Shown here piece after piece: positions 28,398 through 64,000 of a stretch of 64,000 nucleotides of DNA. The stretch is taken from positions 185,488 through 249,487 of the forward strand of contig DLSM01000006.1 of the NCBI GenBank assembly GCA_002500135.1, in the 5' to 3' direction. Every line of letters starts with the position of its first letter. Position 1 is the first letter of the stretch. A program made the translations under genes and the position numbers. The stretch is from Christensenella sp. UBA7862 (GTDB lineage Bacteria > Bacillota > Clostridia > Christensenellales > UBA1242). The notes below the pieces were generated by a model. It was not told the DNA's origin and made no database searches. It was given only the letters and a program-made list of their open reading frames with translations.

Positions 28398-28856
28398 TTA
28401 TCTTTTGCAGTCGGACGAGTCAATAATTATTGTTATTGGTCCATTGTTTTTGACGTCAACATGCATCTCTGCTCCAAATATTCCTGTGTTAATTTTCTTA
28501 AAAACCTTTTGTTCCTCGCAGCGGGAAACAAATTTGTCAATCATAATTTTCGCCTCTTGCGGAGGCATGCTTTCAAAAAAGGCTGGGCGGAAGCCATGAG
28601 AAGTGTTGGCATACAAAGTGAAGTTGCTAATGACCAAAAGTTCTGCCCCTATGTCTTTTGGAGCGAGGTTCATTTTGTCATTTTCATCACAAAATATTCT
28701 AAGCCCGCAAATTTTACGCACAAGATATTCAAGGTCTTTGTCTGTGTCGCCTTTTTTGACCCCAACAAAGCACACGAAGCCGTTTCCAATTTTTCCAACA
28801 ACATTGTCGCTGACTGTAACTTGTGCTTCGTGACATCGCTGAACAACTGCTCTCAT
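28398..28856 (-). CDS. dtd: D-aminoacyl-tRNA deacylase
   Basis: MRAVVQRCHEAQVTV...SNFTLYANTSHGFRPAF...GIFGAEMHVDVKNNGPITIIID, 152 aa. It lies 54 nt upstream of metG on the same strand. Confidence 0.93.
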   Translation of the reverse strand: MRAVVQRCHEAQVTVSDNVVGKIGNGFVCFVGVKKGDTDKDLEYLVRKICGLRIFCDENDKMNLAPKDIGAELLVISNFTLYANTSHGFRPAFFESMPPQEAKIMIDKFVSRCEEQKVFKKINTGIFGAEMHVDVKNNGPITIIIDSSDCKR

Positions 28857-29064
28857 ATTCCCTCCATTATACGGCTATTATACACCGAGATTAAAATTTT
28901 TCAAACACTTTTTTGCCATTGCACCTCGTTTTGGGCGAAAAGTGGAACAAAATTGCGAAATTGTGCGTAAAATTGAATTTTTTGTTTTGAAAGAATAACA
29001 ATATATTATATAATAACTTTAATTTATGGGCTTGTTTTTGTAGCAAAATTTATATGGTGGGAAA

Positions 29065-47856: not shown

Positions 47857-48684
47857 ATGAAGAGATGCATGGGAAGAATAATGGACAAGAGAAAGTACAG
47901 AGGGCTGTGTGCGGCGAAGCGGGTGAGGACTCAGTTTATGTTTGCTGACTATGACACCATGACTGACGTGCAAGCCGTCACGCTTATGCTTTCTTTTGTG
48001 ACACCATGCAATGATTGCAGCGAAATTGCTGAAAGGTTGATAGCAAAATTTGGCTCATTGGCGAAGGTTCTTGAAGCGGATAAAGAAGAATTGAAAACTG
48101 TGAATGGCACCAGCAGCCATGTTGCAGAATTCATTAAATTTTGTTCCAGTTTGCCAGAGTTATATGCTGAATGTGACGACCGAAGACGAATAGTGTTTGA
48201 CAGCATAACAGCAGCTGTCGACTATGCCAGTGACATTCTCAACCTTGAGGAAGAGGGCTATTATTATTTCTGCTTAAACGCAAAAAATGAACTTTTGTAT
48301 TTCAATTCCATGGGAGATTTTCCAATTGGGAAAATGTTCACAACGAATAGGGAAATGTTTAAACAAATATTAAAATTCCCAACCAAAAACGTCCTCATTT
48401 GCCATGTGCTCCCTAAAGGTGAACCAAAACCAAAAACATGGGAAATTAGATTTACAAGAGAACTGAGAGATTTGCTCGCAACAGTCAGAATAGGACTAAC
48501 CGACCACATCATCATAACAAAAGATAAGCACTTCAGCTTCTACAGAATAGGGCTATTAAAACCCGATTGCCCGAAATCTCTTGATGACGAGTTCTTTGAC
48601 ATAAACGCCGAACTATTTGGTGACGATCTCCGCTGCCAAGCCTACAGCGAAAAACGAAACAAAAAGAAGAAAAAGGTGATGTGA
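47857..48684 (+). CDS. RadC-like (UPF0758) protein with a degenerate JAB/JAMM motif (275 aa; start uncertain at 47857, 47869 or 47881)
   Basis: The N-terminal HhH-type segment is IAERLIAKFGSLAKVLEADKEELKTVNG. In the C-terminal JAB region, VLICHVLPKGEPKPKTWEIRFTRELRDLLATVRIGLTDHIIIT, the canonical HNHPSG...S..D is replaced by CHVLPKG...KTWE. TTGCAG-17-TATAAT (47821-47849) ends only 7 nt before the first ATG. Confidence 0.7.
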   Translation: MKRCMGRIMDKRKYRGLCAAKRVRTQFMFADYDTMTDVQAVTLMLSFVTPCNDCSEIAERLIAKFGSLAKVLEADKEELKTVNGTSSHVAEFIKFCSSLPELYAECDDRRRIVFDSITAAVDYASDILNLEEEGYYYFCLNAKNELLYFNSMGDFPIGKMFTTNREMFKQILKFPTKNVLICHVLPKGEPKPKTWEIRFTRELRDLLATVRIGLTDHIIITKDKHFSFYRIGLLKPDCPKSLDDEFFDINAELFGDDLRCQAYSEKRNKKKKKVM

Positions 48685-49098: not shown

Positions 49099-51726
49099 TT
49101 ATTTCGCTGCGGATTTTTTCTTTTTGATGGCGATTGGGACGCAGAGGGCTACAATTACTGGAATTGTGAAGCAAAGGGCTAGGATAACTGGAAGGTTGTT
49201 TTTGGAAGTGGCTGGTTGTTGTGGGGTTATGACGATTTCGTTTGCAAGCATTGTAGAGTTAAGGGAACTTTCGCCGTTTGCTTCTTCTTTTGCTGCGACT
49301 GAAGTTGAAACGTAGGCAATTTTAAGTTCGTTGTTTGCTTCAAGTTCTGCATAGGTGAAGTCTATTTGGTCGTCAACCACTGTCAGTTTTCTTCTTCCAA
49401 GCATTGCATAATCCACTTTGTATCCGTCTTCTGGAATAATGTGATAGGTTATTGTTTCGGTTGATTTGACTTTTGCGACTGCTTTTTGAGTGGTAGCAAC
49501 ATTGCCTTCATAAGTTGTGCAAAGGAATCTTCCGCCCTCGGTAATGTTTCTTGCATAAATGCTTTTTGTTGAAACTTCTTCATTTTTGACTGCTGCAACA
49601 AGGAATGGGCTGAAGTCGCTGATTGTGACCACAATGCCATATTCTGTTACGACACACTCAAGTTCTTCTGTAGCTCCTGGGACAATATATCCAAGATCGT
49701 TCTTTTTGTAGTGGAAAACTTTGAATGTCACGCCTTTGTCTTCTGGTCCATAGCCTTCTGGGAAGCCGAATGCAACTTTCACATAAGAGCCACTTGGAAT
49801 TGTTGCAACGCCGCCGCAAATGTTAAGGTCAATTTCATAAGTTGCACTTTTTTCTATTGTTCCAGATGAAACAAGTTCTGTTGCGTCTTCCTCCATTCTG
49901 CTTGAAAGCTCTTCACTTGGTTTTTTGGCAACAAGCACAAGTTGGCTGCGTTGATTTTGAGCAACTGGATTGCCGTCTTCGTCAAGGAAGTTTGTTAGGC
50001 TTAGGTCACGCCCGTCAATAAGCACTGGGGAACCATAAGAATTGATATACAATCTGCCGTCATTATATATCTTGCTGCAAACCGTCCATGGTCTTGCAAA
50101 GGTTAGTGTTGCTGGGCTTGGCACAAGTTCGCCTACGCTACTTACGATGTTTGTTGGAACAAAGTTGTAGGCTTGGTTGTCATGTTCAAACATTTTGCTT
50201 GGGGTGAAGTAGAATATTATTGTGTTTCCTGAAAGTTGAACACTATCACATTTTACATATTTTGAAAGGTTGCTAGATTTTGAACTGAAAACGTTAATTT
50301 CAATTGGCTTTGAGTTGTCGACCTTTTTAATCGCCTTGTCATAGGTTATGGAAACTGTATAAGTTTGGTCAACCGCCAAAACACTTGTTGGACTTGGGGT
50401 TATTGATTGAACCTTTGGGGCAGCAGTTTCTGGTGCATATTTTTCATTCACAATTACATCACTTTTTGCAACAATTTGAGTTTCGTCAATGGTTGGATAA
50501 ACATTTCCACCAGCAAGCATTTGCTTTGTTATGAACATTTGGGAACTATACCAGTTTTTGTTGATGTTTATTATATTTGAATTTAGGTTGTCACCAGTAA
50601 CCCTGTAGAACCCAGACCAGCCTTTATATTCGTTTGTATCCGTGTCGAAGTATTCGTGATTTATCATAAGATAAAGTGAATTTTCTTCGAGTTTTGTAAT
50701 TGTTTCATAATTCATATAGCCAAATGTTATATATTGGCTGTCATCGTCATAAGAAATTGTTGTCTTAAGTTCCTCTTTGCCATAGTCATAGGTTGCAAGG
50801 GCTGGATATTTCACTTCATAACCACTGTTTGAAATTTCACCACTCTCAACATGGTCTTTGCTGTTTTCGCTTCCCAAAAGGAAATACTTTGTCTGAGAGG
50901 TGGCAGAACTGTTTAGTGTTGAATCTACAAGATACCATTTTGAGTTAAGTTGAACATAATTCCAAGCGTGGCTTTCATATCCGCCGTTATCGTTTGCAAC
51001 ATATCCCACAACTTCCACGCAAGGAATGTTTTGTGTGTCCATAATTGCTTTAAACGCACGGGCAAAGCCTTCGCAAACGGCATATTTTTTTACAATCGCA
51101 CCATATGTTGTGCGAATTTGCTTTTTTCCAAGTTCCGTTCCGTCTGCGTCAAAGGAATAGGTAACGTTTTCACATAGATAAGTGTTTGCCATTAAGATTT
51201 TTGTGTAGTTGTCGGTGGCGGAAGAAAGTCTTGTTTTAATGGCTTCCAATGCGGCGTTATATTCTGTAACGGCGGCAAGGATATCTGCTTGAGTTTTAAA
51301 CCCAGTTGCAAGATAACTATCGCTCCTGCCTGCGTCAATGCTGGCAACAAATTCTGCCCCCTTGCTCTTTAGACTGAGAGTGGCTTGGTCAAAGTTTACA
51401 TAAAAGAGTTCTGGGTGGTCAAGATAGAACAAATCTCTTCCCGCTCCAAAAGACCTTAAAAGGGAAGTGTCCCCGTTTTGAAAACTTCTTACATCTGCAT
51501 TAGATATAACCCCATTTTTCAAAAGGTCATACGACTTGCCTTGTGCAAAAGAATTATCCTCTGCCATTTTTTCAAACGCCTTATAAAACTTTTTGGCATT
51601 TGTGTCTAAGTCTTGTATGTAATATGTGTGTATGCTCTCCGTTGCGGCGTAGGCTTCTTGAGTCATCTGCGGAACGCAAACTAACGCACAACACAGCGCA
51701 ATAAAAAATACAATAAATTTTTTCAT
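49099..51726 (-). CDS. Secreted transglutaminase-like (cysteine protease fold) protein with Ig-like C-terminal domains and a C-terminal TM anchor (875 aa)
   Basis: The signal peptide is MKKFIVFFIALCCALVCVPQMTQEAYA. The transglutaminase core is AVCEGFARAFKAIMD...GYESHAWNYVQLNSKWYLVDST (Cys-His-Asp). The C-terminal VILALCFTIPVIVALCVPIAIKKKK is a TM anchor. Confidence 0.85.
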   Translation of the reverse strand: MKKFIVFFIALCCALVCVPQMTQEAYAATESIHTYYIQDLDTNAKKFYKAFEKMAEDNSFAQGKSYDLLKNGVISNADVRSFQNGDTSLLRSFGAGRDLFYLDHPELFYVNFDQATLSLKSKGAEFVASIDAGRSDSYLATGFKTQADILAAVTEYNAALEAIKTRLSSATDNYTKILMANTYLCENVTYSFDADGTELGKKQIRTTYGAIVKKYAVCEGFARAFKAIMDTQNIPCVEVVGYVANDNGGYESHAWNYVQLNSKWYLVDSTLNSSATSQTKYFLLGSENSKDHVESGEISNSGYEVKYPALATYDYGKEELKTTISYDDDSQYITFGYMNYETITKLEENSLYLMINHEYFDTDTNEYKGWSGFYRVTGDNLNSNIININKNWYSSQMFITKQMLAGGNVYPTIDETQIVAKSDVIVNEKYAPETAAPKVQSITPSPTSVLAVDQTYTVSITYDKAIKKVDNSKPIEINVFSSKSSNLSKYVKCDSVQLSGNTIIFYFTPSKMFEHDNQAYNFVPTNIVSSVGELVPSPATLTFARPWTVCSKIYNDGRLYINSYGSPVLIDGRDLSLTNFLDEDGNPVAQNQRSQLVLVAKKPSEELSSRMEEDATELVSSGTIEKSATYEIDLNICGGVATIPSGSYVKVAFGFPEGYGPEDKGVTFKVFHYKKNDLGYIVPGATEELECVVTEYGIVVTISDFSPFLVAAVKNEEVSTKSIYARNITEGGRFLCTTYEGNVATTQKAVAKVKSTETITYHIIPEDGYKVDYAMLGRRKLTVVDDQIDFTYAELEANNELKIAYVSTSVAAKEEANGESSLNSTMLANEIVITPQQPATSKNNLPVILALCFTIPVIVALCVPIAIKKKKSAAK

Positions 51727-51867
51727 AAAAACTCCTCCTATATTTTTATTAGATTATATCCAAAAAATTGCACGTCTGTCAAATGATACTTTCGTGATAT
51801 TTGCACAAAGAAATTAACCAACTTTTTCCACTCAACATAAATTAAATAAAAAGGGGAGTGTGTGGTT

Positions 51868-53703
51868 ATGGCGACAGAAGTGGCTAGTTTTTCGGAACTT
51901 AAAACATTGGTTGAGGACAGTGTCACAACAGATATTTTAGTTGCGCAAGACATAACTTTTTCGTCTGGCGGGATAAATATAAATGTTTCAAAACCATCGC
52001 TTGTAATAGATTTTGGCGGTCATAAAGTCACCGACTACACTTCAAGCACGTTTACGGACACCTTGCACGTGTCTTCCACCACAAATACCATTTCTGTAAC
52101 TGTAAAAAACGCCGAGTGGAGCGGCAGAAATTATTATGGCGTTGTTGGCGTATATAACGGCAACACAAACACCACTGTCACCTTGCAAAATATATCCTAC
52201 ACTGGCCCTCAGTTTATGTATAACAAAAACGGCGTGACAAATATTATAGATTGCACCATAATCCTAAGCAGTAACGGCACTTCAACAAACCCGCAAGAAT
52301 GCTTAGAAGCAAACAGAGTTTCAGTTTCGGGCAATGTGCAAGTGACGTCAAACTCCACAAGTGACGCCGTCATTTGGTTCACGGGACAAAACGCAAGTTT
52401 GACGGTGCAAGAGAATGCAACATTTATTGTTAAAGCAGAACTCACTTATCTTTTATACACCGACTCATCTCCCGACATTCTCTGTAAAAAGAATTCATCA
52501 ACCACAATCACCACCCAAAGAGGACTATTCTACGCCTCGGGCAGCGGCTCGCATATCGCAAAGTCTTTTACGCTTGAGGAAGGTGCAAGTTTTGTCGCAT
52601 ACAAAAACGCCAGCAACTCTGTGCCAATGTTCAAGTGCCAATCAAACTTCACCATAAATAAAAATTCCACTTTCAGATTGTTTTCCGAGATGATAAGCAG
52701 CACCGCTCTTGTGTATTTCGGTCAAGCGGCAAACATCCAAATAAACTCCCCAAAAAATGTCGTTTTATACAATCGTGGCGGAGATATTTTCAGTTTCCAA
52801 ACGGGAACAGCGTCAAACCCGAATATAATAAACATCTCAACAGAAATGTTACGTCTTTGGGACGTGGCAAAAAGTCCAATAACAGACGCTGGAACTTTTG
52901 ACAACCCTCCAAGCAGCGAGTTTTACAAAGCGAACTACGCAAACGACCTAACTTTAAACATAAAATCAACAACCTCACAAATGACTGGACTTACAAGTAA
53001 CCTTGAAGAGGGCGACAAGGGCTATCCGTTTTCTTCCACCTCACTCAAGCTTTTCACATCAAAAGTCATAAGCCTAGGCTCATTGCCACTAAATGTTGTC
53101 ACCATAAACGATTTGTCCACAGAAATAACTGGAACAACAGAACCACTTGCAACTGTAGGTGTGTCACTAAACGGAACTCAAATCACCACTGCCGACAGTG
53201 AAGGAGATTTTATAGTTGCAATCGACCCACCCGCAGTTGACACCCCAGTAACTATCGCAGCCAACATTAACTTTTTGACCAAGGAAATATCAACACAAAC
53301 AGAAGGCTCTGTGTCTGTTTCTCATGTTGACGACTTGAAATTTAAAACATTTACAACAAAGTCCAATATGAGCATTATCTTGCGAGATAACACCGACTTT
53401 ACAATAGAAATAAAAGACACCCGCACATCGGGCGGGAATTGGACGCTATATTGCTTTTTTGAACAGCCCCTTACAAGTGGTGAAAATAAACTGGAGAACA
53501 ACCTAGTCTTCAACACTGAAGGTGCCTCAAACATAATCTCCACTGCCCTCTTTCAAGTCCACAGCGGCACATGGGACGCCTCCACTCAAACAACCACCCT
53601 CACATGGCCGTCCGCCCAAGGCTTCCTCCTATCCCTCACTCCCCAAGCAGAATACCCCGCCGGAACCTACACCACCACCCTCCACTGGGAAATTGTGTAT
53701 TAA
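51868..53703 (+). CDS. Pectate-lyase-like adhesive domain / WxL-like C-terminal domain protein without a signal peptide (611 aa)
   Basis: The N-terminus is ATEVASFSELKTLVEDSVTTDILVAQDITFS. Beta-helix-like repeats follow. The C-terminus has FTIEIKDTRTSGGNWTLYCF and PAGTYTTTLHWEIVY, which resemble the two WxL motifs. The ATG at 51868 follows AAAGGGGAG. No hydrophobic N-terminal segment is present. Confidence 0.6.
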   Translation: MATEVASFSELKTLVEDSVTTDILVAQDITFSSGGININVSKPSLVIDFGGHKVTDYTSSTFTDTLHVSSTTNTISVTVKNAEWSGRNYYGVVGVYNGNTNTTVTLQNISYTGPQFMYNKNGVTNIIDCTIILSSNGTSTNPQECLEANRVSVSGNVQVTSNSTSDAVIWFTGQNASLTVQENATFIVKAELTYLLYTDSSPDILCKKNSSTTITTQRGLFYASGSGSHIAKSFTLEEGASFVAYKNASNSVPMFKCQSNFTINKNSTFRLFSEMISSTALVYFGQAANIQINSPKNVVLYNRGGDIFSFQTGTASNPNIINISTEMLRLWDVAKSPITDAGTFDNPPSSEFYKANYANDLTLNIKSTTSQMTGLTSNLEEGDKGYPFSSTSLKLFTSKVISLGSLPLNVVTINDLSTEITGTTEPLATVGVSLNGTQITTADSEGDFIVAIDPPAVDTPVTIAANINFLTKEISTQTEGSVSVSHVDDLKFKTFTTKSNMSIILRDNTDFTIEIKDTRTSGGNWTLYCFFEQPLTSGENKLENNLVFNTEGASNIISTALFQVHSGTWDASTQTTTLTWPSAQGFLLSLTPQAEYPAGTYTTTLHWEIVY

Positions 53704-53746: not shown

Positions 53747-53773
53747 AAAAGTGCCTAAAAATTGGCACTTTTT
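53747..53773. terminator. Bidirectional terminator (WxL-like gene / recombinase gene)
   Basis: AAAAGTGCC-TAAAAATT-GGCACTTTT. Confidence 0.75.
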
Positions 53774-53779
53774 ATGTTT

Positions 53780-54385
53780 TTAAGCAGTAAACTTTTTTCG
53801 TTCTAAACTTAGATATTTAAAGAAAGTCGAAATGGGCATATTAGCCATTTTTGCGGCAATGCTACAAGTTATTTCCTTGGCTAGATATAGTTTCAAAACA
53901 TCATAGAAATTGTCAGGTAAAACCAATTTTGGTCGCCCCATGTGAACACCTTTTTCCTTGGCAATTCGTATGCCTTCTGCTTGCCTTGACTTAATATTTT
54001 CTCTTTCAGTTTCAGCAACGAAAGAAAGGATTTGCAACACAATATCAGCAATAAATCTACCAACTAAATTTTGTGGGGTAGAACGAGTGTCTAAAAGTGG
54101 CATATCAATAACAAAAACATCGCACTCAACAATCTTAGTGATATAATACCATTCATCTAAAATCATTTTATAATTACGACCGAGGCGGTCTATTGATTTA
54201 ATAATCAGTAGGTCACCCTTTTTTATTTTAGCCCTTAAAATTTGATAATTTTCACGATTAAAATCCTTGCCACTTTGCTTATCAATAAAAACATTCTCAT
54301 TTGGAATTTTTAGCCTTGCCATTTCTTCAGTTTGTCTTTCAATATTTTGTGTGGTTGATGAAACACGCACATATCCATAAATCAT
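53780..54385 (-). CDS. Small serine recombinase (resolvase/invertase family, Hin/Gin/Pin-like; 201 aa)
   Basis: MIYGYVRVSSTTQNIERQ contains the catalytic Ser. Also present are GDLLIIKSIDRLGRN, ERENIKSRQAEGI and a C-terminal HTH (CSIAAKMANMPISTFFKYL). The start is taken at ATG 54385 after GGAGG. The ORF-track start at 54457 adds 24 atypical aa. Confidence 0.92.
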   Translation of the reverse strand: MIYGYVRVSSTTQNIERQTEEMARLKIPNENVFIDKQSGKDFNRENYQILRAKIKKGDLLIIKSIDRLGRNYKMILDEWYYITKIVECDVFVIDMPLLDTRSTPQNLVGRFIADIVLQILSFVAETERENIKSRQAEGIRIAKEKGVHMGRPKLVLPDNFYDVLKLYLAKEITCSIAAKMANMPISTFFKYLSLERKKFTA

Positions 54386-54405: not shown

Positions 54406-54434
54406 ATTTTAAAATATTTTTTTCATCATGGCAA
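54406..54434 (-). promoter_or_regulatory. Candidate recombinase promoter
   Basis: On the minus strand: TTGCCA (54434-54429), 17 nt, then TAAAAT (54411-54406). Confidence 0.5.
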
Positions 54435-54460
54435 TACTGACAAAGAGATCTATACAAAAA

Positions 54461-54476
54461 TACACGTTGGTGTAGT
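54461..54476. repeat. Left arm of a 16-bp perfect inverted repeat (candidate recombinase crossover site)
   Basis: TACACGTTGGTGTAGT. It contains the internal dyad TACAC-GTTG-GTGTA. Confidence 0.9.
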
Positions 54477-54528
54477 AATTTAATCCAAACGATTTATTAG
54501 GTGTAGTATATCATATTTCTTCAAAAAA

Positions 54529-54557
54529 TGGACATAATTTTACTAATTTTTTAATAT
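54529..54557 (+). promoter_or_regulatory. Promoter-like element inside the IR-bracketed segment, currently facing the helicase operon
   Basis: TGGACA (54529-54534), 17 nt, then TAATAT (54552-54557). The segment is AT-rich, so other weaker matches exist, for example minus-strand TTGCAT-17-TAAAAA. Confidence 0.45.
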
Positions 54558-54606
54558 TTTTTGCATTTTCATGCAATTCTGCTTCTCAAAGCCTTTTTTT
54601 AGCTTA

Positions 54607-54622
54607 ACTACACCAACGTGTA
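54607..54622. repeat. Right arm of the 16-bp perfect inverted repeat
   Basis: ACTACACCAACGTGTA is the exact reverse complement of 54461-54476. It lies 76 nt upstream of the helicase ATG. Confidence 0.9.
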
Positions 54623-54697
54623 CCTTTAAGTAGTAAAAAACTTAATAATCTGAACTTGATTTTGATAATGTTTGTATTCAACAGAAGAGAGGAAAGG

Positions 54698-57600
54698 ATG
54701 ATGTTTGAAAATATAGATAACAGGATAAGGTTCCTTGGAGATGATCTAAAGAAGGAGTTAAAAGAGAACTCAAAAATTAGGATTGCAGCATCCTGTTTTT
54801 CTATGTATGCCTTTAAGGAACTGAAAGAAGAATTTAAAAAGATTGACGAGTTAAAATTTCTATTCACTTCGCCCACATTTACAAAAGAAAAAATTGTGGA
54901 AGATATGAAAAGTGAAAAAAGAGAATTCTATATACCTAAATTAAATAGAGAAAATTGCCTGTATGGAACAGATTTTGAAATAAGGCTTCGCAATGAAATG
55001 ACTCTTAAAGCGGTGGCAAGGGAATGTGCTGAATGGGTAAAAGAGAAGGTTAGATTTAAAAGTAACATAACTGAGTCCTACATTCCAAATTTTATAGGAA
55101 TAGAAAAATCTCAACAACCAAGTATAGTTTACAATCCAATAGATGGCTTTACAGCAAGCGACTTGGGGTATCAACAAGGGAGGGCTATATTTTCAGCCAC
55201 AATGAAGACTGACTTTGCCGAGCAGAGTAAATTTTTATTATCCATGTTTGACGAAGTTTGGAACGACAAGTCAAGGGTTGAAGATATAACAGATTCAGTT
55301 ATTGAAATGATTAGTTCTGCGTATCAAGAAAACAGCCCAGAATTTATTTATTACATAGTTCTATACAATGTTTTTGCCGATTTTCTTGATGAAATCAGTG
55401 ACGATCATATGCCAAATGAAGCAACTGGGTTCAAGAATACAAAAATTTGGAACACCTTGTATGACTTTCAGAAAAATGGCGCAATAAGCATAATTCAAAA
55501 ACTTGAAAAACATAACGGTTGCGTATTGGCAGATAGTGTTGGACTGGGTAAAACTTTTACTGCACTTGCAGTTATGGCGTATTATTCTTTGAGAAATAAA
55601 AGCATTTTGGTGTTATGTCCAAAAAGGCTTGGTCAAAATTGGATGCAATATTGTGGGAATGAAGTAACAAACATTTTTTATCAAGACAGAATTAGATACG
55701 ATGTCCTCTATCACACAGACCTAGGAAGATCTGGAATGTCTCATGACGGCAGAGACATTAAATATATTAACTGGGGAAATTATGATCTTGTAGTTTTAGA
55801 TGAATCTCATAACTTTAGGAACAACTATGCGGCGGAAGGTAAAGAATCTCGATACAACTTTCTTGTAAATAAAGTTTTAAGACCGGGGGTGAAAACCAAG
55901 ATTTTAATGCTTTCTGCAACACCAGTAAACAACAGATATGCTGACTTAAAAAACCAACTAGCACTTGCTTATGCACAAGATTATGATGCTTTTGAGGCGA
56001 GTTTGGACACAAAAAGTAGCATTGCTTCAATATTCAGAAATGCTCAATCTGTCTTTAATGAATGGTCAAGGAAGCCGATATACAAAAGAAAAACAATAGA
56101 CTTGGTGAACAATTTAAGCATGGATTTTAAAACGCTTCTTGACAGTGTGACAATAGCAAGAAGCAGAAAGAAGATTCTAAAGTATTATAAAGACAACAGT
56201 ATAGGTAACTTCCCAGAAAGACTGCCGCCTCAGTCATATTTCCCAGAACTAACCGAATTGCAAGGGGTATCATCTTACGAAGAAATCTATGAAAAAATCG
56301 CTTTGATGAATATGGCTGTTTATGGCGTTTTTGACTATGTCCTTGAAAGTAAAAAAGAAAAATATGAAATGAAAACTACTCTCGAAGAAAATTTTGGTGG
56401 AATATCCAGAGGTGGACGAACGGCAGGAATAAAGAGATTGATGACTATAAATCTGTTGAAAAGATTGGAATCGAGTGTAGAGGCTTTCAGTCTGACAATG
56501 GACAAAATTCTTAAACAGAATTTAGCAGAACTAGATAGATTGCAACAATACGAAGATGGATTGCTTGACCCCGATGCTACAATAGATAAAAAAGTTTTTA
56601 GTTATGAAGCAATAGATATGGATGATGAAACATTTTCCTTTTTCAGAACGGATAAAGGAAGAACAATTTCTATTAAATATGCAGATGTAGATAGAAGATC
56701 GTGGAAAAGGGCAATGCAAGAGGATATAAATGAATTGACATTGCTTTTGAACGAGATGAACAAAATAACACCCGAGCATGACAACAAATTGCAAACATTA
56801 AAGGATGTTATAAAAGATAAAATTCAAAATCCAATAAACCCAGGCAATCATAAAGTTTTAATTTTTTCAGCTTTCGCCGATACCGCAAATTATCTTTATG
56901 ACAATTTAAAGAATTGCCTAAAAGAGAATTATGGAATAGAGTCCGCTTTAATAGTAGGACAAAAGAATAGAACTACCATTAGCGATTGCTCAAACAGAAC
57001 AGATGCCTTGCTAACTATGTTCAGCCCAATAAGCAAAAATAGAGATGAGACTTTTAATAGGATTGAATGTCATGGCAAGTCCACTGAGATAGATATCCTC
57101 ATAGCCACAGATTGCATTTCAGAAGGTCAAAACTTGCAAGATTGTGATATGTGCTTAAATTACGACATCCATTGGAACCCTGTTAGGATAGTCCAACGTT
57201 ATGGACGTGTGGACAGATTGGGGAGCAAAAATGAAAAAATAAGGCTTATAAATTTCTGGCCACCAATATCACTTAACGAATACCTTAATCTTACAGAAAG
57301 AGTAAGTAGCAGAATGACAATAGTCAACCAAACTGCAACTGCTGATGACAATATTCTTGACCCAGATGAACAGCTTGATGATTATAGAGAAATTCAAATT
57401 AAAAAACTTCAAGAAGGTGAAAATATAGACCTAGATGACCAAGAAACTGGTGTTTCAATTTCAGATTTGGGGCTAAACGACTTCCGAATGGATATGTCGG
57501 AATTGCTTAAAACATATGGCAAATCAAAACAACTTCCAAAAGGTCTTCATTGTGTTGTCCCAGCAGATGAAAAGAATGGAATTGCTCCAGGGGTTATTTA

Positions 57601-58006
57601 TGTTTTGAAAAACCAAAATCAAAATCTCAGTTTAGTAAAGAGAAATAGATTGTATCCATATTTCTTGGTGTATGTGGACAAGTCTGGAAAGGTTATTGAG
57701 GACTACACTCAAGTCCATCAAATTTTGGAAATATTAAAACGGGCATGCTCTGGACGGAAAGAACCAATCGCTGAAGTTTACAAAAAGTTTAACCTAGAAA
57801 CAGATGACGGGAAGGACATGCATATATATTCTGGCTTACTTAAAGACGCAATTCAGTCAATGATCAGTGAGAAAAACACAAGCGATTTGCAATATTTGTT
57901 TAAATTCGGAAGTGAAGTTTTAAATGAAGTTGGAATTAAGGGGTTGGACGATTTTGAACTCATAACCTTTGTCGTAATCGAACAAAAGGAGGGGGAGAAT
58001 GTTTAA
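54698..58006 (+). CDS. SNF2-family helicase/translocase with unassigned N-terminal (about 270 aa) and C-terminal (about 230 aa) regions (about 1,102 aa)
   Basis: Helicase motifs: I LADSVGLGKTFTALAV; II DLVVLDESHNFRN; III LMLSATPVNN; V/VI ILIATDCISEGQNLQDCDMCLNYDIHWNPVRIVQRYGRVDRLGS. The start is ATG at 54698 or 54701, after GAGAGGAAAGG. Confidence 0.9.
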   Translation: MMFENIDNRIRFLGDDLKKELKENSKIRIAASCFSMYAFKELKEEFKKIDELKFLFTSPTFTKEKIVEDMKSEKREFYIPKLNRENCLYGTDFEIRLRNEMTLKAVARECAEWVKEKVRFKSNITESYIPNFIGIEKSQQPSIVYNPIDGFTASDLGYQQGRAIFSATMKTDFAEQSKFLLSMFDEVWNDKSRVEDITDSVIEMISSAYQENSPEFIYYIVLYNVFADFLDEISDDHMPNEATGFKNTKIWNTLYDFQKNGAISIIQKLEKHNGCVLADSVGLGKTFTALAVMAYYSLRNKSILVLCPKRLGQNWMQYCGNEVTNIFYQDRIRYDVLYHTDLGRSGMSHDGRDIKYINWGNYDLVVLDESHNFRNNYAAEGKESRYNFLVNKVLRPGVKTKILMLSATPVNNRYADLKNQLALAYAQDYDAFEASLDTKSSIASIFRNAQSVFNEWSRKPIYKRKTIDLVNNLSMDFKTLLDSVTIARSRKKILKYYKDNSIGNFPERLPPQSYFPELTELQGVSSYEEIYEKIALMNMAVYGVFDYVLESKKEKYEMKTTLEENFGGISRGGRTAGIKRLMTINLLKRLESSVEAFSLTMDKILKQNLAELDRLQQYEDGLLDPDATIDKKVFSYEAIDMDDETFSFFRTDKGRTISIKYADVDRRSWKRAMQEDINELTLLLNEMNKITPEHDNKLQTLKDVIKDKIQNPINPGNHKVLIFSAFADTANYLYDNLKNCLKENYGIESALIVGQKNRTTISDCSNRTDALLTMFSPISKNRDETFNRIECHGKSTEIDILIATDCISEGQNLQDCDMCLNYDIHWNPVRIVQRYGRVDRLGSKNEKIRLINFWPPISLNEYLNLTERVSSRMTIVNQTATADDNILDPDEQLDDYREIQIKKLQEGENIDLDDQETGVSISDLGLNDFRMDMSELLKTYGKSKQLPKGLHCVVPADEKNGIAPGVIYVLKNQNQNLSLVKRNRLYPYFLVYVDKSGKVIEDYTQVHQILEILKRACSGRKEPIAEVYKKFNLETDDGKDMHIYSGLLKDAIQSMISEKNTSDLQYLFKFGSEVLNEVGIKGLDDFELITFVVIEQKEGENV

Positions 58007-58631
58007 ATATAACGAAAGAACTGAAGTAAATTTAGACTTAAAACTAGCGGAACTATTCAAAGTAATCAAGGCGAATAAGCAAATTCAATCAGATGCAAGT
58101 ATAGTTTCAAAGGTAATATTAACAAACATATTGTCACCAGATAGAACGAACCTAGAACCAAGCGAAAATGTGAAAGAAATATACATAATGGACATTGTTC
58201 TTAACAAAGCAGCAGCCCCAACAAAGTTTATAGATGCACTGAATAAATACATAAACTTTCAAATACTTTTTAGATTGCGATATGAAGTAGAGGTCAAATA
58301 TATCACATCACTAAAAGCATTTACTGAAGATAAAACCAAGGTTTTGAAAACTTGCGAAAGTGATTGGCAAAAAGAAAATAAAGAGGAACTTCCAAGCACT
58401 AGTAAATTAGAAAATGTTTTCAAAGCAATGGTAAGTTACATCACGAAAATAAAGTTCAGACAAGATGAAACTTTTGATGAATACACAGACCGAACCAACC
58501 AAATAAAAAAACACAAAACAGAGATTGAGAAGCTAACAAAAACTCGTGATGCAGAAAAACAACCAAACACAAAAATGGCGATAAACAGCCAAATAAAAGA
58601 ACTCAAAAGAGAATTGGAGGAAATGTTATGA
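57999..58631 (+). CDS. DUF4391-like protein (210 aa)
   Basis: It overlaps the SNF2 stop by 8 nt. The pattern VKEIYIMDIVLNKAAAPTKFIDALNKYINFQILFRL, followed by a Lys/Glu-rich coiled-coil tail, matches my recollection of the DUF4391 (PF14335) family. That family is often found beside SNF2 helicase and methyltransferase genes. An HMM search is needed. Confidence 0.5.
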   Translation: MFKYNERTEVNLDLKLAELFKVIKANKQIQSDASIVSKVILTNILSPDRTNLEPSENVKEIYIMDIVLNKAAAPTKFIDALNKYINFQILFRLRYEVEVKYITSLKAFTEDKTKVLKTCESDWQKENKEELPSTSKLENVFKAMVSYITKIKFRQDETFDEYTDRTNQIKKHKTEIEKLTKTRDAEKQPNTKMAINSQIKELKRELEEML

Positions 58632-59122
58632 AAAAAGAAATGAATTTAGAGGAAAACAATGATTTGATATGTGAATTATCTTATATTAGTGATGATGAGA
58701 AAGATAATCTCAAATCATCAATCATAAAGTTTGTTTGTTATTTTAACTTATTTGAAAGTTATTTAAACGAAAGAGGCATAGATCATTGGTATGATTTTTT
58801 TGATAAATACACAGTTGATGAAAGTTTGATAAATAAATATTTTGAATTTTTCTATAAGAGATATGTAAAAGATGATGAAGTAAATGATCAATTTAATAGT
58901 TTTTATGGCGTTGTTAAAGAAAATTATCTAAATCAATTAAAAAATGATTTAATTCAAAAACAAAATAAACCTAAATCGGTGTTATCAATTTCTTATTATT
59001 TTAGGAACAATCTATTTCACGGACATAAAGCTATATGTCAGTTGAAAAAGTATGTTGCTTGTTTTGAAAAAATCACGGAATTTTTATTAAAAATAATGGA
59101 AAATGCAAAGGAGAAAAAATAA
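58628..59122 (+). CDS. Small all-alpha protein with an Rx4H motif: putative HEPN-domain protein (164 aa)
   Basis: It has an ATGA overlap with the upstream gene and a TAATG overlap with mod. SISYYFRNNLFHGHKA contains R-N-x3-H, with the polar residue after Arg typical of HEPN RNase motifs. The size suits a minimal HEPN domain. It is the most AT-rich gene of the operon. Confidence 0.4.
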   Translation: MKKEMNLEENNDLICELSYISDDEKDNLKSSIIKFVCYFNLFESYLNERGIDHWYDFFDKYTVDESLINKYFEFFYKRYVKDDEVNDQFNSFYGVVKENYLNQLKNDLIQKQNKPKSVLSISYYFRNNLFHGHKAICQLKKYVACFEKITEFLLKIMENAKEKK

Positions 59123-60981
59123 TGGATAAATTACAAATGCGAAGTAAAAATTTGGTGGATGAAAATATTAGTAAAATTGCAGAGTTATTCCCTAACTGTA
59201 TTACTGAGGGAAAAGATGAAAATGGACAAGTTGTTAAACTTGTTGATTTTGACTTGCTTAAACAAGAATTGTCGAAAGAAATTGTTGAGGGTAATGATGA
59301 AAGATATACACTTAATTGGGCAGGTAAAAAACAAGCAATTTTAACTGCAAATTCACCTATCAATGCAACACTACGCCCTTGCAGAGAAGAAAGTGTTGAT
59401 TTTGATAGCACAAAAAACCTTTACATTGAGGGAGACAACCTTGACGTCCTTAAACTTCTGCGTGAAACTTACTTGAACAAAGTTAAAATGATTTATATTG
59501 ACCCACCTTACAATACTGGTAATGATTTTGTGTATGAAGATGATTTTGCTAGTAGTACTGAAGATTATTTGCAAGCAAGTAAGAGTTATGATGATCAAGG
59601 CAATAGAATGTTCCAAAACAACGATTCAAATGGTAGATTTCATTCTGATTGGCTTTCAATGATGTATTCAAGACTGAAATTAGCAAAAGATTTATTAACT
59701 GATGATGGTGTAATTTTTATTTCTATTGATGACAATGAACAAGAGAATTTAAAGAAAATTTGTAATGAAATATTTGGTGAATTAAATTTTATTGGCACAC
59801 ATATACGAAAAACAGTATCCCAAAGAGCAATGGCAAAAAATTATAATACACAACACGAATATTGCTTAATCTATACTAAAAATAATAATAATTTTGATTT
59901 ATGTGGCGACGAAAAAAACTTTAATGTTTACAGTAATCCAGATAATGATCCACGAGGAGATTGGAAAACATCTGATCCCACTATGAGTGGATCTAAAAAT
60001 AATTTCGAGATTATCAATCCATATAACGGAAAAATAGATTTTCCACCAAAAGGAAGAGGTTGGGCTTTTACTAAAGAAAAATTTGATTGTTTAGTAGATG
60101 AAGGGATAGTTATTTTCAAGAAAGATTGCAAGGAATCGGAAAGAGGTTTTATTTACAAAGCTTATAAAAAAGATTTAAGAAGTCAGAATTTGCTTTTAAA
60201 TTCTCTAGACGTTTGCGAAAATCAATATATGAATCAAGTTTCGACAAAAGAAATGATAGAATTATTTGATGAACGAATGTTTGACTATGCCAAACCAGTT
60301 TCATTTGTAAGGAAAATATTAAGTTATGATAAAAATAAAGAATCAATTATATTAGATTTTTTCTCGGGCTCAGCAACAACTGCTCAAGCGGTCATGCAAT
60401 TGAATGTTGAAGATGGCGAAAATAGAAAATACATAATGGTTCAACTTCCTGAAATAACTGACGAAAACAGTGAAGCATATAAAGCTGGGTATAAGACAAT
60501 TTGTGAAATAGGCAAAGAAAGAATTCGTAGAGCAGGGAAAAATATAAAGGATGAAAATCCTGGCAAAAAAATTGATGTTGGTTTCCGTGTATTTAAACTT
60601 GACAGTAGTTGTATGAAAGACATTTATTATTCTCCAAATAAAACGACACAAGATTTGCTCACTCAATTTGAAGATAACATCAAAGAAGATAGAACCCCAG
60701 AAGATTTGTTATTCCAAGTAATGCTTGATATGGGTGTTATGCTTTCAAGTGAAATAAAGACCTTAGAGATCAATGGCAAAAAAGTATTCAATGTAAACGA
60801 TGGCGACCTAGTTTGCTGTTTTGATAAAGACCTTAACGATGATGTCGTTACAGCAATAGCAAAAATGCAACCATTGTATGCCGTATTTAGAGATGCAAGT
60901 ATGTCAACTGACAGTGTAGCAGTAAACTTTGACCAAATTTTTGAGACATATTCGCCAACTACAACAAGGAAAATAATATAG
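59122..60981 (+). CDS. mod: Type III-style N6-adenine DNA methyltransferase (Mod; beta-class, N6_N4_Mtase) (619 aa)
   Basis: Motif IV, MIYIDPPYNTGNDFVYEDDF, precedes motif I, LDFFSGSATTAQAV. A variable middle (TRD) region separates them. The N-terminus ERYTLNWAGKKQA is typical of Mod proteins. Confidence 0.88.
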   Translation: MDKLQMRSKNLVDENISKIAELFPNCITEGKDENGQVVKLVDFDLLKQELSKEIVEGNDERYTLNWAGKKQAILTANSPINATLRPCREESVDFDSTKNLYIEGDNLDVLKLLRETYLNKVKMIYIDPPYNTGNDFVYEDDFASSTEDYLQASKSYDDQGNRMFQNNDSNGRFHSDWLSMMYSRLKLAKDLLTDDGVIFISIDDNEQENLKKICNEIFGELNFIGTHIRKTVSQRAMAKNYNTQHEYCLIYTKNNNNFDLCGDEKNFNVYSNPDNDPRGDWKTSDPTMSGSKNNFEIINPYNGKIDFPPKGRGWAFTKEKFDCLVDEGIVIFKKDCKESERGFIYKAYKKDLRSQNLLLNSLDVCENQYMNQVSTKEMIELFDERMFDYAKPVSFVRKILSYDKNKESIILDFFSGSATTAQAVMQLNVEDGENRKYIMVQLPEITDENSEAYKAGYKTICEIGKERIRRAGKNIKDENPGKKIDVGFRVFKLDSSCMKDIYYSPNKTTQDLLTQFEDNIKEDRTPEDLLFQVMLDMGVMLSSEIKTLEINGKKVFNVNDGDLVCCFDKDLNDDVVTAIAKMQPLYAVFRDASMSTDSVAVNFDQIFETYSPTTTRKII

Positions 60982-61108
60982 GATTAGTGTTACTAAAGAT
61001 ATAAATTTATTGAATAATTTAAACATTTATGACCAAATAAAAATTTCAAACCTATAGTAAAACTTGATTTTAAAATAAATTGTCAAAATCTTAAAAAAGG
61101 AGAAATAA

Positions 61109-61873
61109 ATGACAAACAAAGTTAAAGAAATAAAGTATTTTTGTGCTAAATGTTATCAAGATTACACACAAGATATTAGTATTTGTCCGTTTTGTAAGAA
61201 TAGATTAATTAAAAAAGAAATTTATTGGGATTTAGAAGCACATGGATATTTTATAAAAATTTCAAGTTTGATTGCTTTAAAAAATATGAGAAAAGGTGCA
61301 ATATGGTTCAGACCACCTGTTTATTTTAATAGATATGAACAAGATGATGTCATTGGAGACAGCCAAGAGTTTTTAGTTCAAGTTGATCCAGATGATAAAA
61401 AGTTTGATCCTAATATAAACAAGAAATTAATATTTTGTATGTACTTTTTGACAACAGATAAAAATGGTAATTATTCTATTCCAGAGCAAGATAAAGATAA
61501 TTTGCAAAAATTTGGTAATTCAGTTTCTTTTATTAGTTTTGCAAAGTTCAAAAAATTAATTGAAAAGTATGTTATTAGAGAGGCTAATAAAATAGTTGGT
61601 AACCATGTTTCTTATTATACAGATAAGATGTGTGGGGCTATTAACCCATTCTTTAAAAGAATAAAATATAACTATCAAAACGAGTATAGATTTATTTTAG
61701 AAGATGAAAGGTTTCTTAGTCTATATAACGAAGATGGTTCATTAAAGGAAGACAAATTTGTTTATAAACATAGAAGAAATCTAAAAAAAGTTTTTAGCAA
61801 GCCAATCGATTTAGAAATTATTCTTAATAGCCAAAACGAAAAGGATTGGGATCATTTGATTAAGATGTATTAA
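61109..61873 (+). CDS. Zinc-ribbon protein with a DUF2971-like body (254 aa), inserted between mod and res
   Basis: It has its own RBS, AAAGGAG. YFCAKCYQDYTQDISICPFCKNRL is a CxxC-x12-CxxC ribbon. GAIWFRPPVYFNRYEQDDVIGDSQE and YQNEYRFIL resemble the DUF2971 signatures from memory. The gene is very AT-rich. Confidence 0.4.
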   Translation: MTNKVKEIKYFCAKCYQDYTQDISICPFCKNRLIKKEIYWDLEAHGYFIKISSLIALKNMRKGAIWFRPPVYFNRYEQDDVIGDSQEFLVQVDPDDKKFDPNINKKLIFCMYFLTTDKNGNYSIPEQDKDNLQKFGNSVSFISFAKFKKLIEKYVIREANKIVGNHVSYYTDKMCGAINPFFKRIKYNYQNEYRFILEDERFLSLYNEDGSLKEDKFVYKHRRNLKKVFSKPIDLEIILNSQNEKDWDHLIKMY

Positions 61874-61884
61874 GGAGAACACAA

Positions 61885-64000
61885 ATGAAATTTAGATTTA
61901 AGACACAGTCGTATCAGCAAGATGCTGTAATAAATATTTGCAAGGTATTTAAAGGGCAGCCAAAGTTGGATATGATTAGATACACAAGAGATTTGGGTAT
62001 TAGGAGAAAGGAGACTGGAAAGCCTCAATTTGGAATGTTTGACGCCTATGAAGAAAATGATGATGGTTTCGAAAATGCTAAAATACTGCTTGATGAAACT
62101 GACATTTTGCAAAACATAAAGCATATTCAACAAGATTGCAACTACAAAGAGTCAGAAGAATTGGTTAAAGGTCTTGGCAAATGTTCGCTTGACATTGAAA
62201 TGGAAACAGGCACAGGCAAAACATATGTATATATCAACACCATTTTTGATTTGAACGAAAGATATGGTTGGAGTAAATTCATAGTTGTTGTTCCTAGCAT
62301 TGCTATTCGTGAAGGTGTTAAAAAGTCATTCCAGATGATGGAAGATCACTTCATGGATCGTTATCACAAAAAGGCAAGATATTTTGTTTACAACAGCAAA
62401 AGGCTTAGTGAATTAGATAGTTTTGCTTCATCTAGTGATATCAATGTAATGATCATTAACACGCAAGCATTCAATGCTCGTGGCACTGATGCCAGAAGAA
62501 TTGATATGGTTCTTGATGAATTTCAATCAAGAAAACCAATTGATGTTGTAGCAAAAACAAGACCAATACTGATCCTTGATGAACCACAAAAGATGGGCGA
62601 TGAAAAGAGTGCAACACAACTTTCACTTCGCAAATTTAATCCACTATTTTGTATGAACTTCTCAGCAACACACAAAAAGCAACACAACCTTGTATATTGC
62701 TTGGATGCAGTGGATGCATACAATAAATGCTTGGTTAAAAAGATTCAAGTCAAGGGCTTTGAGATTAAGAATTTGCGTGGAACAGATAAATACTTGTATT
62801 TGCAAGACATCGTGCTTTCACCAAACAAACCACCAATGTGTAAGTTAGAGTTTGAAATAAACTATAACAAGTCAATCAATAGAGAGACAAGAATCCTTGG
62901 CAAAGGCGACAACTTGTATCACAAGTCTAACCAAATGGAACAATACAAGAACGATTATATAATCTCAGACATCAATCCATTTAACAACACAATCACTTTC
63001 CTAAATGGACAAGTATTGCACATTGGCGAAGTGCTAGGGGATGTTTCAGATAAAGACCTTAGAAGAATACAAATAAGAGAAACAATTCGTTCACACTTTG
63101 AAAAAGAAGAGAAGCTTTACGATAAAGGAATTAAATGCTTGTCATTGTTCTTCATTGATGAGGTTGTAAAGTATAGAGATTACAACGAGCCAGATGAAAA
63201 AGGCGAATATGCAAGAATGTTTGAAGAAGAGTACACAAAGGCACTCAACGAAAAGATAACACTATTCGAAACACCTTACATTCGCTACTTGAAAGGCATT
63301 GATGTTAAAGACACACACAAAGGTTATTTCTCAATAGATAAAAAGACCGGAAGAATGATCGATTCAAAGGAAAGCAAAGGCGAAGGCTCAGATGATATTT
63401 CAGCATACGACCTTATTTTGAAAAACAAAGAGAGATTGCTTTCAAAGGAAGAACCAACAAGATTCATATTCTCACACTCAGCACTTCGTGAAGGTTGGGA
63501 TAACCCTAACATCTTCCAAATTTGTGCATTGAAACCCGGTGGCGACAGTGCAATTGCAAAGCGACAAGAGGTCGGTCGTGGACTTCGTATTGCTGTAAAT
63601 ATGATAGGGGATAGAACAGACCTTCACTATTTCAAGAATGAGAGATCATCATTCCATAATGTCAACACTTTAACAGTTATTGCAACTGACAGTTATAAAG
63701 ACTTTGTTGGTTCAATACAAAAAGTGCTTAAAGAAAACCTTGCAGACAGACCTACAAGGGCAACAATTGAATATTTCCGTGGCAAGTTCGTTAGCGATGG
63801 AAAAGAGAGAATTCAGGTCAACAACGATATGGCAAGTGATATTCAAAGTTATTTGAGATTTAACGGTTATGCCGATAAAGATAACAAAATCACTCAAAAA
63901 TACTTTGATGACAAGGCAAACAACACGCTTGCCGCAATGCCAGAAATCCTTGCGCCATACACAGAAAGTGTGCATAAACTTGTTGAAAGCATTTACAATG
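61885..64000 (+). CDS. res: Type III restriction endonuclease Res subunit (helicase part; 3' end beyond the window)
   Basis: This ORF is not in the supplied track because it has no stop inside the window. I translated it by hand from ATG 61885 (RBS AAGGAG) and found no stop to nt 64000 (705 codons). Motifs: DIEMETGTGKTYVY (I), ILILDEPQKM (II), NFSATH (III), ALREGWDNPNIFQICALK and QEVGRGLRIAV (VI). The C-terminal nuclease domain is not in the window. Confidence 0.88.
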   Translation, partial: MKFRFKTQSYQQDAVINICKVFKGQPKLDMIRYTRDLGIRRKETGKPQFGMFDAYEENDDGFENAKILLDETDILQNIKHIQQDCNYKESEELVKGLGKCSLDIEMETGTGKTYVYINTIFDLNERYGWSKFIVVVPSIAIREGVKKSFQMMEDHFMDRYHKKARYFVYNSKRLSELDSFASSSDINVMIINTQAFNARGTDARRIDMVLDEFQSRKPIDVVAKTRPILILDEPQKMGDEKSATQLSLRKFNPLFCMNFSATHKKQHNLVYCLDAVDAYNKCLVKKIQVKGFEIKNLRGTDKYLYLQDIVLSPNKPPMCKLEFEINYNKSINRETRILGKGDNLYHKSNQMEQYKNDYIISDINPFNNTITFLNGQVLHIGEVLGDVSDKDLRRIQIRETIRSHFEKEEKLYDKGIKCLSLFFIDEVVKYRDYNEPDEKGEYARMFEEEYTKALNEKITLFETPYIRYLKGIDVKDTHKGYFSIDKKTGRMIDSKESKGEGSDDISAYDLILKNKERLLSKEEPTRFIFSHSALREGWDNPNIFQICALKPGGDSAIAKRQEVGRGLRIAVNMIGDRTDLHYFKNERSSFHNVNTLTVIATDSYKDFVGSIQKVLKENLADRPTRATIEYFRGKFVSDGKERIQVNNDMASDIQSYLRFNGYADKDNKITQKYFDDKANNTLAAMPEILAPYTESVHKLVESIYN

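Follow-up and report, generated by a model that had tools for sequence, protein, structure and literature searches.

Invertible promoters are well known in bacteria, where examples include fimS, hin, the polysaccharide promoters controlled by Mpi, switches of C. difficile and the thousands of elements recovered in PhaseFinder and DeepInverton surveys (PMC11868660, PMC11602134). The locus described here is located in a 64,000-nucleotide stretch of Christensenella sp. UBA7862 (contig DLSM01000006.1, positions 185,488 to 249,487, forward strand), hereafter the window. It consists of a short AT-rich segment bounded by inverted repeats, with a small serine recombinase gene on one side and, on the other, an operon that encodes an SNF2-family helicase and a type III restriction system. 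The DNA between the arms of the repeat inverts in nature, with its breakpoints in the repeats. We consider it probable that the whole is a site-specific inversion switch (an inverton), in which a conserved extended -10 element is flipped by the adjacent recombinase and which lies in the OFF orientation in the window.

One of the closest described systems is that of Mpi, which one account presents as a small serine recombinase flipping promoter segments to switch the capsular polysaccharide operons of Bacteroides fragilis (PMC11761130). The window locus is similar in that a short, putatively promoter-bearing segment appears to be flipped by a small serine recombinase, and the best NCBIfam match of the window recombinase is the Mpi invertase family NF009949, where the alignment is full length but the score of 54.6 bits falls far under the family cut-off of 272. 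The 'master' invertase Mpi acts at many loci distant from it, whereas the window recombinase adjoins its single pair of sites, with two sites in 64 kb. The host and the cargo also differ, being Clostridia with restriction and helicase defence genes here and B. fragilis with surface polysaccharide in the case of Mpi.

The second comparison is with the Salmonella flagellar switch Hin/hix and its relatives Gin, Cin and Pin. The hix and gix sites are inverted 26-bp imperfect dyads of the form 12-2-12 with an asymmetric central dinucleotide. Inverted 12-2-12 sites are found at the window locus too, together with a serine recombinase that has an N-terminal catalytic and a C-terminal DNA-binding domain; as in the Hin system, the recombinase gene is adjacent and a promoter, predicted in our case, lies within the invertible segment. 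However, the segment measures 156 bp here rather than about 1-3 kb, and the recombinase gene lies outside it. Hin and Gin need an enhancer bound by Fis, a protein that is not expected in Clostridia.

The window recombinase contains a PF00239 Resolvase match (E 4.8e-25, residues 2-147) and aligns over its full length to both gamma-delta resolvase, including the C-terminal DNA-binding part, and Gin. Among solved structures it scored best against Sin/Bin3 (2r0q, E 3.9e-31, 111 bits), followed by gamma-delta resolvase (73 bits) and Gin invertase (50 bits), with the gamma-delta and Tn3 resolvases both at about 70 bits. It is therefore nearer to Sin/Bin3 and gamma-delta resolvase than to Gin, and the 'Hin-type' label given to it in an earlier note, made from the letters of the window, is too specific; the label seems to fit the apparent mode of action and not the closest kinship. 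Sin, Bin3 and beta, which belong to Gram-positive plasmids and transposons, are the closest solved relatives and have the same domain layout, but they mainly resolve direct res sites that are equipped with accessory sites. The sites of the window locus are inverted, with no recognised accessory site. The same difference separates the locus from cointegrate resolution by resolvase/res systems, because the sites are not direct and inversions were the only products observed.

Phase variation of restriction and defence systems has also been described. Type I systems shuffle hsdS (PMC7672463), type III mod genes undergo repeat slippage (PMC11868660), and methyltransferases of BREX or DISARM-like systems have their coding sequences inverted (PMC9881135). 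The window locus would share with these the stochastic and reversible variation of a restriction or defence system. Those mechanisms alter specificity or the frame of a single gene, whereas here a promoter appears to be turned upstream of a whole operon and the coding sequence is left untouched. One preprint lists PhaseFinder invertons at most 2 kb from type I, II and III systems, with the promoter switches not dissected (PMC11741434), and a 2025 preprint reports that small serine recombinases, linked to defence systems across phyla, serve as markers of such systems; their role is left open there, with no more than a speculation that defence genes might be regulated by inversion (PMC12632615). 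RADS and EF_B0058 of Enterococcus faecalis likewise concern a small serine recombinase of Bacillota with genetic linkage to nucleic-acid restriction. EF_B0058 shares a transcript with its type IV enzyme, whereas the window recombinase is divergent from the operon and its putative inversion substrate is seen in both states. Furthermore, identity to the window protein does not exceed 51% among the nearest plasmid-borne recombinases, which is under the 65% criterion of RADS, and the nearest of them (E. faecalis pGTC3, 51%) offered no informative context. No description of the module was found in the literature, where DUF4391 appeared only in unrelated contexts; supplementary tables of PhaseFinder might include this type of locus.

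The repeat consists of TACACGTTGGTGTAGT at 54461-54476 and its exact reverse complement ACTACACCAACGTGTA at 54607-54622, with 130 nt of AT-rich DNA separating the arms. It is flanked by the recombinase gene (ATG at 54385, minus strand) and the SNF2 helicase gene (ATG at 54698, plus strand). Both the perfect 16-bp repeat and its placement between a small serine recombinase gene and the restriction operon had been proposed earlier, and both were confirmed, with a PF00239 gene and an SNF2 gene found on either side. The proposed segment length of 130 bp holds for the DNA between the arms, but the exchanged DNA amounts to 156 bp (54464-54619) by crossover mapping. The 16-bp repeat is the sole perfect inverted repeat of at least 16 nt with arms at most 2 kb apart in the window, and it can be extended imperfectly to 21 nt at 90%. 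At least one such repeat occurred in 7 of 100 mononucleotide shuffles (mean count 0.10). The repeat alone is only modestly improbable, suggestive rather than compelling, and its weight comes from the comparison with other genomes.

Four lineages of the module, with recombinases 78-100% identical, were compared: the window lineage, sister alleles at 93-96%, and two lineages at 78% and 82%. Orientation was tallied on public contigs spanning both sites. The conserved promoter element was observed to point toward the helicase in 28 contigs and toward the recombinase in 21, and both states occur in all four lineages. In the window lineage, seven of the eight spanning contigs carry the window orientation, in which the element points toward the recombinase, whereas the opposite orientation prevails in other lineages (19:10 and 5:1). 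The exact window recombinase is encoded in nine places, and those that span the region all share the window orientation. The junction expected only after a flip (outer flank, left arm and reverse-complement interior) was found by a scan of a genome collection in L013, a contig of a Clostridia metagenome-assembled genome; a metagenome scan for the same junction gave no match. L013 and the window are collinear on both sides at about 90% identity, and only 54461-54622 aligns on the opposite strand (94.5%, both arms intact).

The 93-96% identical alleles are numerous and place the module in a different chromosomal neighbourhood, again in both orientations. For example, contigs L014 and L015 come from different samples, encode an identical recombinase and are identical over 480 nt save for an exact 145-nt reverse-complement block. 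In the set of 78% and 82% homologues, L044 differs from L047, L048 and L049 by an exact 155-nt reverse complement, and L055 and L057 are likewise related by an exact reverse complement between identical flanks. L014 and L018 showed no difference from the oppositely oriented L019, L020 and L023 over 2,009 nt of the recombinase gene, the intergenic region and the 5' end of the helicase gene, while orientation was interspersed across haplotype clusters. Because haplotypes with zero differences differ in orientation and orientation is scattered among clusters, the inversion is recent and recurrent and does not stem from one old rearrangement. The proposal that the segment is an invertible element is thus borne out by both orientations in four lineages and by exact breakpoints within the arms. 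As for conservation of the repeat pair at homologous loci, which had been put forward as a check, the two-site architecture is present in all lineages, but in two of them the arms match only over AAAGGTAC.

Six contigs from six samples (L006-8, L022, L043 and L050) break at the last base common to both orientations, and the break points lie 13, 5 or 0 nt beyond the site centre, tracking the extent of arm identity in each lineage. Breaks of this kind would be expected from a branch in the assembly graph if both orientations co-occur in one sample, and they may be an indirect sign of such mixing. The called length of the helicase (1082, 1117 or 1136 amino acids) showed no correlation with orientation, the differences stemming from start-codon calls. 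A second scan, using the inverton signature, recovered only two further copies of the same module and no other type of cargo. The features of the switch region in the window are as follows.

53780 to 54385, minus strand: small serine recombinase gene, presumed invertase (201 amino acids plus stop; ATG at 54385)
54406 to 54434, minus strand: predicted promoter-like site for the recombinase, TTGCCA-17-TAAAAT (10/12), outside the invertible segment
54450 to 54475, plus strand: left crossover site, CTATACAAAAAT-AC-ACGTTGGTGTAG, a 12-AC-12 imperfect dyad (8/12) with its centre AC at 54462-54463
54461 to 54476, plus strand: left arm of the perfect 16-bp inverted repeat; base 54476 is the last base of three contigs, each from a separate sample
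54464 to 54619, no strand: invertible (exchanged) segment of 156 bp, from the opposite-strand alignment of L013 and exact reverse-complement pairs in three other lineages
54505 to 54515, minus strand: conserved extended -10 element TATGATATACT, pointing at the recombinase; its hexamer TATACT is the reverse complement of 54505-54510
54529 to 54557, plus strand: promoter-like match TGGACA-17-TAATAT (9/12), in the window and L013 only
54607 to 54622, plus strand: right arm of the perfect 16-bp inverted repeat, exact reverse complement of the left arm
54608 to 54633, minus strand: right crossover site, CTACTTAAAGGT-AC-ACGTTGGTGTAG, with its centre reading GT on the plus strand at 54620-54621

Every site in all lineages was observed to be a 26-bp imperfect dyad of the form 12-AC-12, with 5-10 of 12 positions symmetric, and in two lineages the core, AAAGGT-AC-ACCTTT, is perfect. 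The two outer flanks of the window lineage diverge as far inward as TAC, which follows AAAAA at the left site and AAAGG at the right one, and these flanks are not moved by inversion. In the 78% and 82% lineages the identity of the arms ends with AAAGGTAC and the swapped DNA begins directly after it. When the outer-flank limit of the first lineage is combined with the AAAGGTAC limit of the other two, the exchange maps to within T-A-C (54461-54463), provided that these closely related systems share a homologous position of exchange. AC, rather than TA, would be the exact crossover dinucleotide, judging from the symmetry of the dyad. This dinucleotide is non-palindromic and thereby gives the sites the polarity that is needed for inversion by a serine recombinase, as in the Hin and Gin sites. 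The exchanged segment is 155-156 bp long in all lineages, and their site centres are without exception 157-158 bp apart (158 bp in the window) despite a diverged interior; this fixed spacing may reflect a limit on the length of the loop or on its helical phase. Across the 64-kb window, a degenerate pattern of the site matches these two sites only.

Two other assignments of recombination sites were considered. The earlier note had placed the crossover at the GTTG centre of each arm; the arms differ there in the 78% and 82% lineages, and the exchange occurs within T-A-C at the outer edge of the arm. An interim model with a central TT, TACACG-TT-GGTGTA (54467-68), was drawn from L014 and L015 and was rejected on similar grounds, as the 78% and 82% arms differ at these bases (AT versus TT) and the swap starts after AAAGGTAC. 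An additional half-site, GGTGTAGTA, is indeed present at 54500-54508 as had been reported, but it is not conserved outside the window lineage and overlaps the -10 element, and it was therefore discarded as an accessory recombinase site.

The recombinase gene lies 76 nt from the centre of the left site, and its linkage to the operon persists in four lineages that differ in their chromosomal neighbours. Because of this linkage in four contexts, the serine-recombinase type of the sites, and arms that are too short for homologous recombination (8 identical bases in two lineages, where the inversion is nevertheless exact), the neighbouring recombinase is the likely catalyst of the inversion. A 68% homologue, P0112 (contigs L058-L065), was rejected as a member of the same system since it has no sites of the AAAGGTAC type and occurs in a non-defence context. 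P0112 sits between genes for an arginase and a pyridine-nucleotide disulfide oxidoreductase; five of its eight contigs terminate 61-111 nt upstream of its start, in very AT-rich DNA, and L063 runs on into a different sequence.

Footprinting across lineages showed TATGnTATAAT to be the sole promoter-like element conserved in all of them, where it takes the form TATGTTATAAT or TATGCTATAAT outside the window lineage. It is always found 41-42 nt from the centre of the site toward which it points. We infer that this element has promoter activity and that its orientation sets the ON or OFF expression of the operon. Because the element faces the recombinase in the window, with the operon behind it, the window is probably operon-OFF and L013 ON. 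The window had been taken for the ON orientation in the earlier note, on the strength of the TGGACA-17-TAATAT match facing the operon. That match exists (9/12), but its hexamers are confined to the window lineage (the window and L013), whereas the extended -10 of all lineages lies on the other strand and faces the recombinase. A conserved operon promoter outside the segment was also sought between the right site and the helicase start and none was found, as the weak matches differ from lineage to lineage and are missing altogether in one; a conserved constitutive promoter was accordingly rejected as a candidate.

No terminator was predicted between the left site and the ATG of the recombinase in the window, and with nothing terminator-like there, transcription from the invertible promoter may add to recombinase expression while the operon is OFF. 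In the 78% and 82% lineages (L044 and L052) this interval contains terminator-like hairpins with T-runs, for example GGTTCAAGGTATTTGAAGCC-TTTTTTT in L044, which may insulate the recombinase from the invertible promoter; feedback on the recombinase, if real, is therefore not general. On the other side of the segment, in the leader at 54623-54697, a short block AGTAAAAAAA adjoining the site and another, CTTGATTTTGA, about 35 nt further on are kept across otherwise diverged lineages. These blocks could be an accessory protein-binding site or an element of the mRNA leader.

In the mechanism that we propose, the 201-amino-acid recombinase most likely binds the two inverted 26-bp sites (54450-54475 and 54608-54633) as dimers and synapses them. 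Double-strand cuts with a 2-bp stagger would then be made at AC/GT (54462-63 and 54620-21), one pair of half-sites would rotate, and religation would leave the 156-bp segment 54464-54619 flipped. In the window orientation the TATGATATACT promoter would fire toward the recombinase and away from the operon, which is the OFF state. In the flipped orientation it would fire across the right site and through a leader of about 110-150 nt into SNF2-DUF4391-ORF164-Mod-ORF254-Res (ORF, open reading frame), which is the ON state. A population would then be a reversible mixture of cells with and without expression of the defence island.

Several points weigh against this account. The role of the recombinase as catalyst rests on linkage and site type, while the ON/OFF assignment and the identity of the promoter are based on conservation and a match to the consensus. 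The -10 hexamer of the window lineage is TATACT, a 5/6 match, and a second promoter-like site faces the operon. Seven of the eight spanning contigs of that lineage are in the putative OFF state, a bias that one would not expect of a defence system that is normally on. Between the right site and the helicase start there are weak promoter-like matches that are not conserved, and the 128-nt gap before ORF254 and Res could hold an internal promoter, so that OFF may be incomplete for some genes. The same switch might instead use TGGACA-17-TAATAT as its active promoter, in which case the window would be ON and the flipped state OFF. This promoter has a 17-nt spacer, matches at 9 of 12 positions and faces the operon, and the orientation bias of the window lineage would fit a defence system that is usually on. 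We assign this reading a low probability, as its hexamers are not kept in the sister, 78% and 82% lineages while the opposite-strand extended -10 is kept in all, as promoter-like matches are no commoner than in shuffles of this AT-rich region (7 found, 5.1 expected), and as the opposite orientation prevails in other lineages. It is also conceivable, at least in the window lineage, that two back-to-back promoters are present and that inversion swaps the drivers of operon and recombinase, giving two levels of expression and a switching rate that depends on orientation. Both promoter-like elements do occur in the window and L013, and an outward promoter could read the recombinase in sense where no terminator is predicted before its ATG. 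The second element is absent from other lineages, however, and the terminator-like hairpins of the 78% and 82% lineages show that read-through into the recombinase is not conserved; we hold this arrangement to be unlikely, although it deserves to be kept in view.

The remaining alternatives concern the recombination itself. The inversion could be real but be carried out by RecA-dependent homologous recombination or by a recombinase encoded elsewhere, with the neighbouring enzyme serving the mobility or resolution of the island. Serine recombinases beside defence systems have been proposed to mobilise them (PMC12632615), and the module is found in four different chromosomal contexts. Against this, the 8 identical bases shared by the arms in two lineages are far too few for homologous recombination, the inversion is exact, and the exchange maps to the middle of a 12-2-12 dyad whose central dinucleotide is asymmetric, as in the sites of serine recombinases. 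The recombinase and the sites are also kept together in every lineage, with only two sites in the 64-kb window, and we regard this explanation as very improbable. Finally, the dyad symmetry of each arm, and a position upstream of a resolvase-family gene such as res sites occupy, could suggest that the segment does not switch and that its repeats serve as static operators for a protein or as a resolvase res site. The occurrence of both orientations on identical haplotypes and in four lineages, the inverted rather than direct sites and the exclusive finding of inversion products leave this idea with almost no credence. The switch that we favour, driven by the adjacent recombinase and built around the conserved extended -10, would act on the following genes.

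54698 to 58006, plus strand: SNF2-family helicase, first gene of the operon, 1102 amino acids (PF00176, PF00271, PF04851)
57999 to 58631, plus strand: DUF4391 protein (PF14335, E 1.7e-22), with an 8-nt overlap with the helicase gene
58628 to 59122, plus strand: 164-amino-acid protein, no family match
59122 to 60981, plus strand: type III Mod DNA methyltransferase (PF01555; PADLOC MTase_III, 772 bits, full length)
61109 to 61873, plus strand: 254-amino-acid protein, no family match
61885 to 64000, plus strand: probable type III Res endonuclease (NF012027); the reading frame leaves the end of the window, with 705 amino acids seen

The helicase matches the PADLOC candidate family C3a139 'HKD+Snf2' (E 2.5e-104), and Res scored 279 bits against NF012027 (E 6.3e-83), below the cut-off of 564 as expected for a protein cut by the end of the window. 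The operon is not DISARM because its proteins gave no match to the core proteins DrmA or DrmB (DUF1998) and the helicase scored 142 bits against DrmD, far under the cut-off of 610. The genes overlap or abut except for the single 128-nt gap, no intrinsic terminator was predicted in 57900-62000, and it is plausible that the six genes form a single transcription unit. Switching a complete restriction system on in an unmethylated cell risks self-cutting. In type III systems the activity of Res depends on Mod, and this dependence may soften the transition from OFF to ON.

The 78% and 82% homologues are again divergent from an SNF2-DUF4391-small ORF-Mod operon, yet lie in other neighbourhoods. The module behaves as a mobile island because its neighbouring genes differ among lineages. 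In other lineages these neighbours are LOR/SpoIVA or WYL/PemK/FtsK_gamma. In the window, a gene for a 613-amino-acid adhesin-like protein (Pectate_lyase_5, Big_6) occupies 51862-53703; it is absent from L013, where about 500 bp (L013 3040-3536) replace about 1.9 kb. The adhesin and recombinase genes are convergent, and a bidirectional terminator-like hairpin with a 9-bp stem and T-runs on both strands is located between them at 53747-53772. A RadC-like JAB-domain gene (47857-48684) and a gene for an 875-amino-acid transglutaminase-like protein (49099-51726) are found upstream of the adhesin gene.

A second perfect inverted repeat, of 14 bp (AATTTTACGCACAA), was noticed elsewhere in the window at 28710-28723 and 28961-28974, with 237 nt between the arms and upstream of an ORF of 2,377 amino acids. 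It was rejected as a second switch as its left arm lies within the coding sequence of D-Tyr-tRNA deacylase (dtd, 28398-28856, minus strand), which an inversion would destroy. A 14-mer repeat arises in 51 of 100 shuffles and this one is most likely due to chance.

The mechanism at this locus is classical, and what is new is the cargo, the lineage and the link to the association between recombinases and defence systems. Restriction and other anti-phage systems carry a cost and keep out incoming DNA that could be of use. Here an entire operon of six genes (type III / SNF2 / DUF4391), found in uncultured gut Clostridia, appears to be controlled by the flip of a promoter, which gives a concrete and testable role to one family of defence-associated serine recombinases. 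Estimates of the 'defence repertoire' of these organisms from metagenomes should account for orientation, and the compact system (a 201-amino-acid recombinase and two 26-bp sites 158 bp apart) could serve as a small genetic switch.

It is possible, although we would lean against it at present, that defence-adjacent small serine recombinases are commonly phase-variation switches that flip promoter cassettes to toggle whole defence islands. If this is true, the locus would be the first worked example, with the crossover mapped to three nucleotides by natural variation alone. In the geometry of the window lineage the same promoter would drive the recombinase when the operon is OFF, which would make the OFF state self-limiting. 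Switching of whole defence islands would let a lineage hedge between protection from phage and the costs of restriction, namely autoimmunity and blocked gene uptake.

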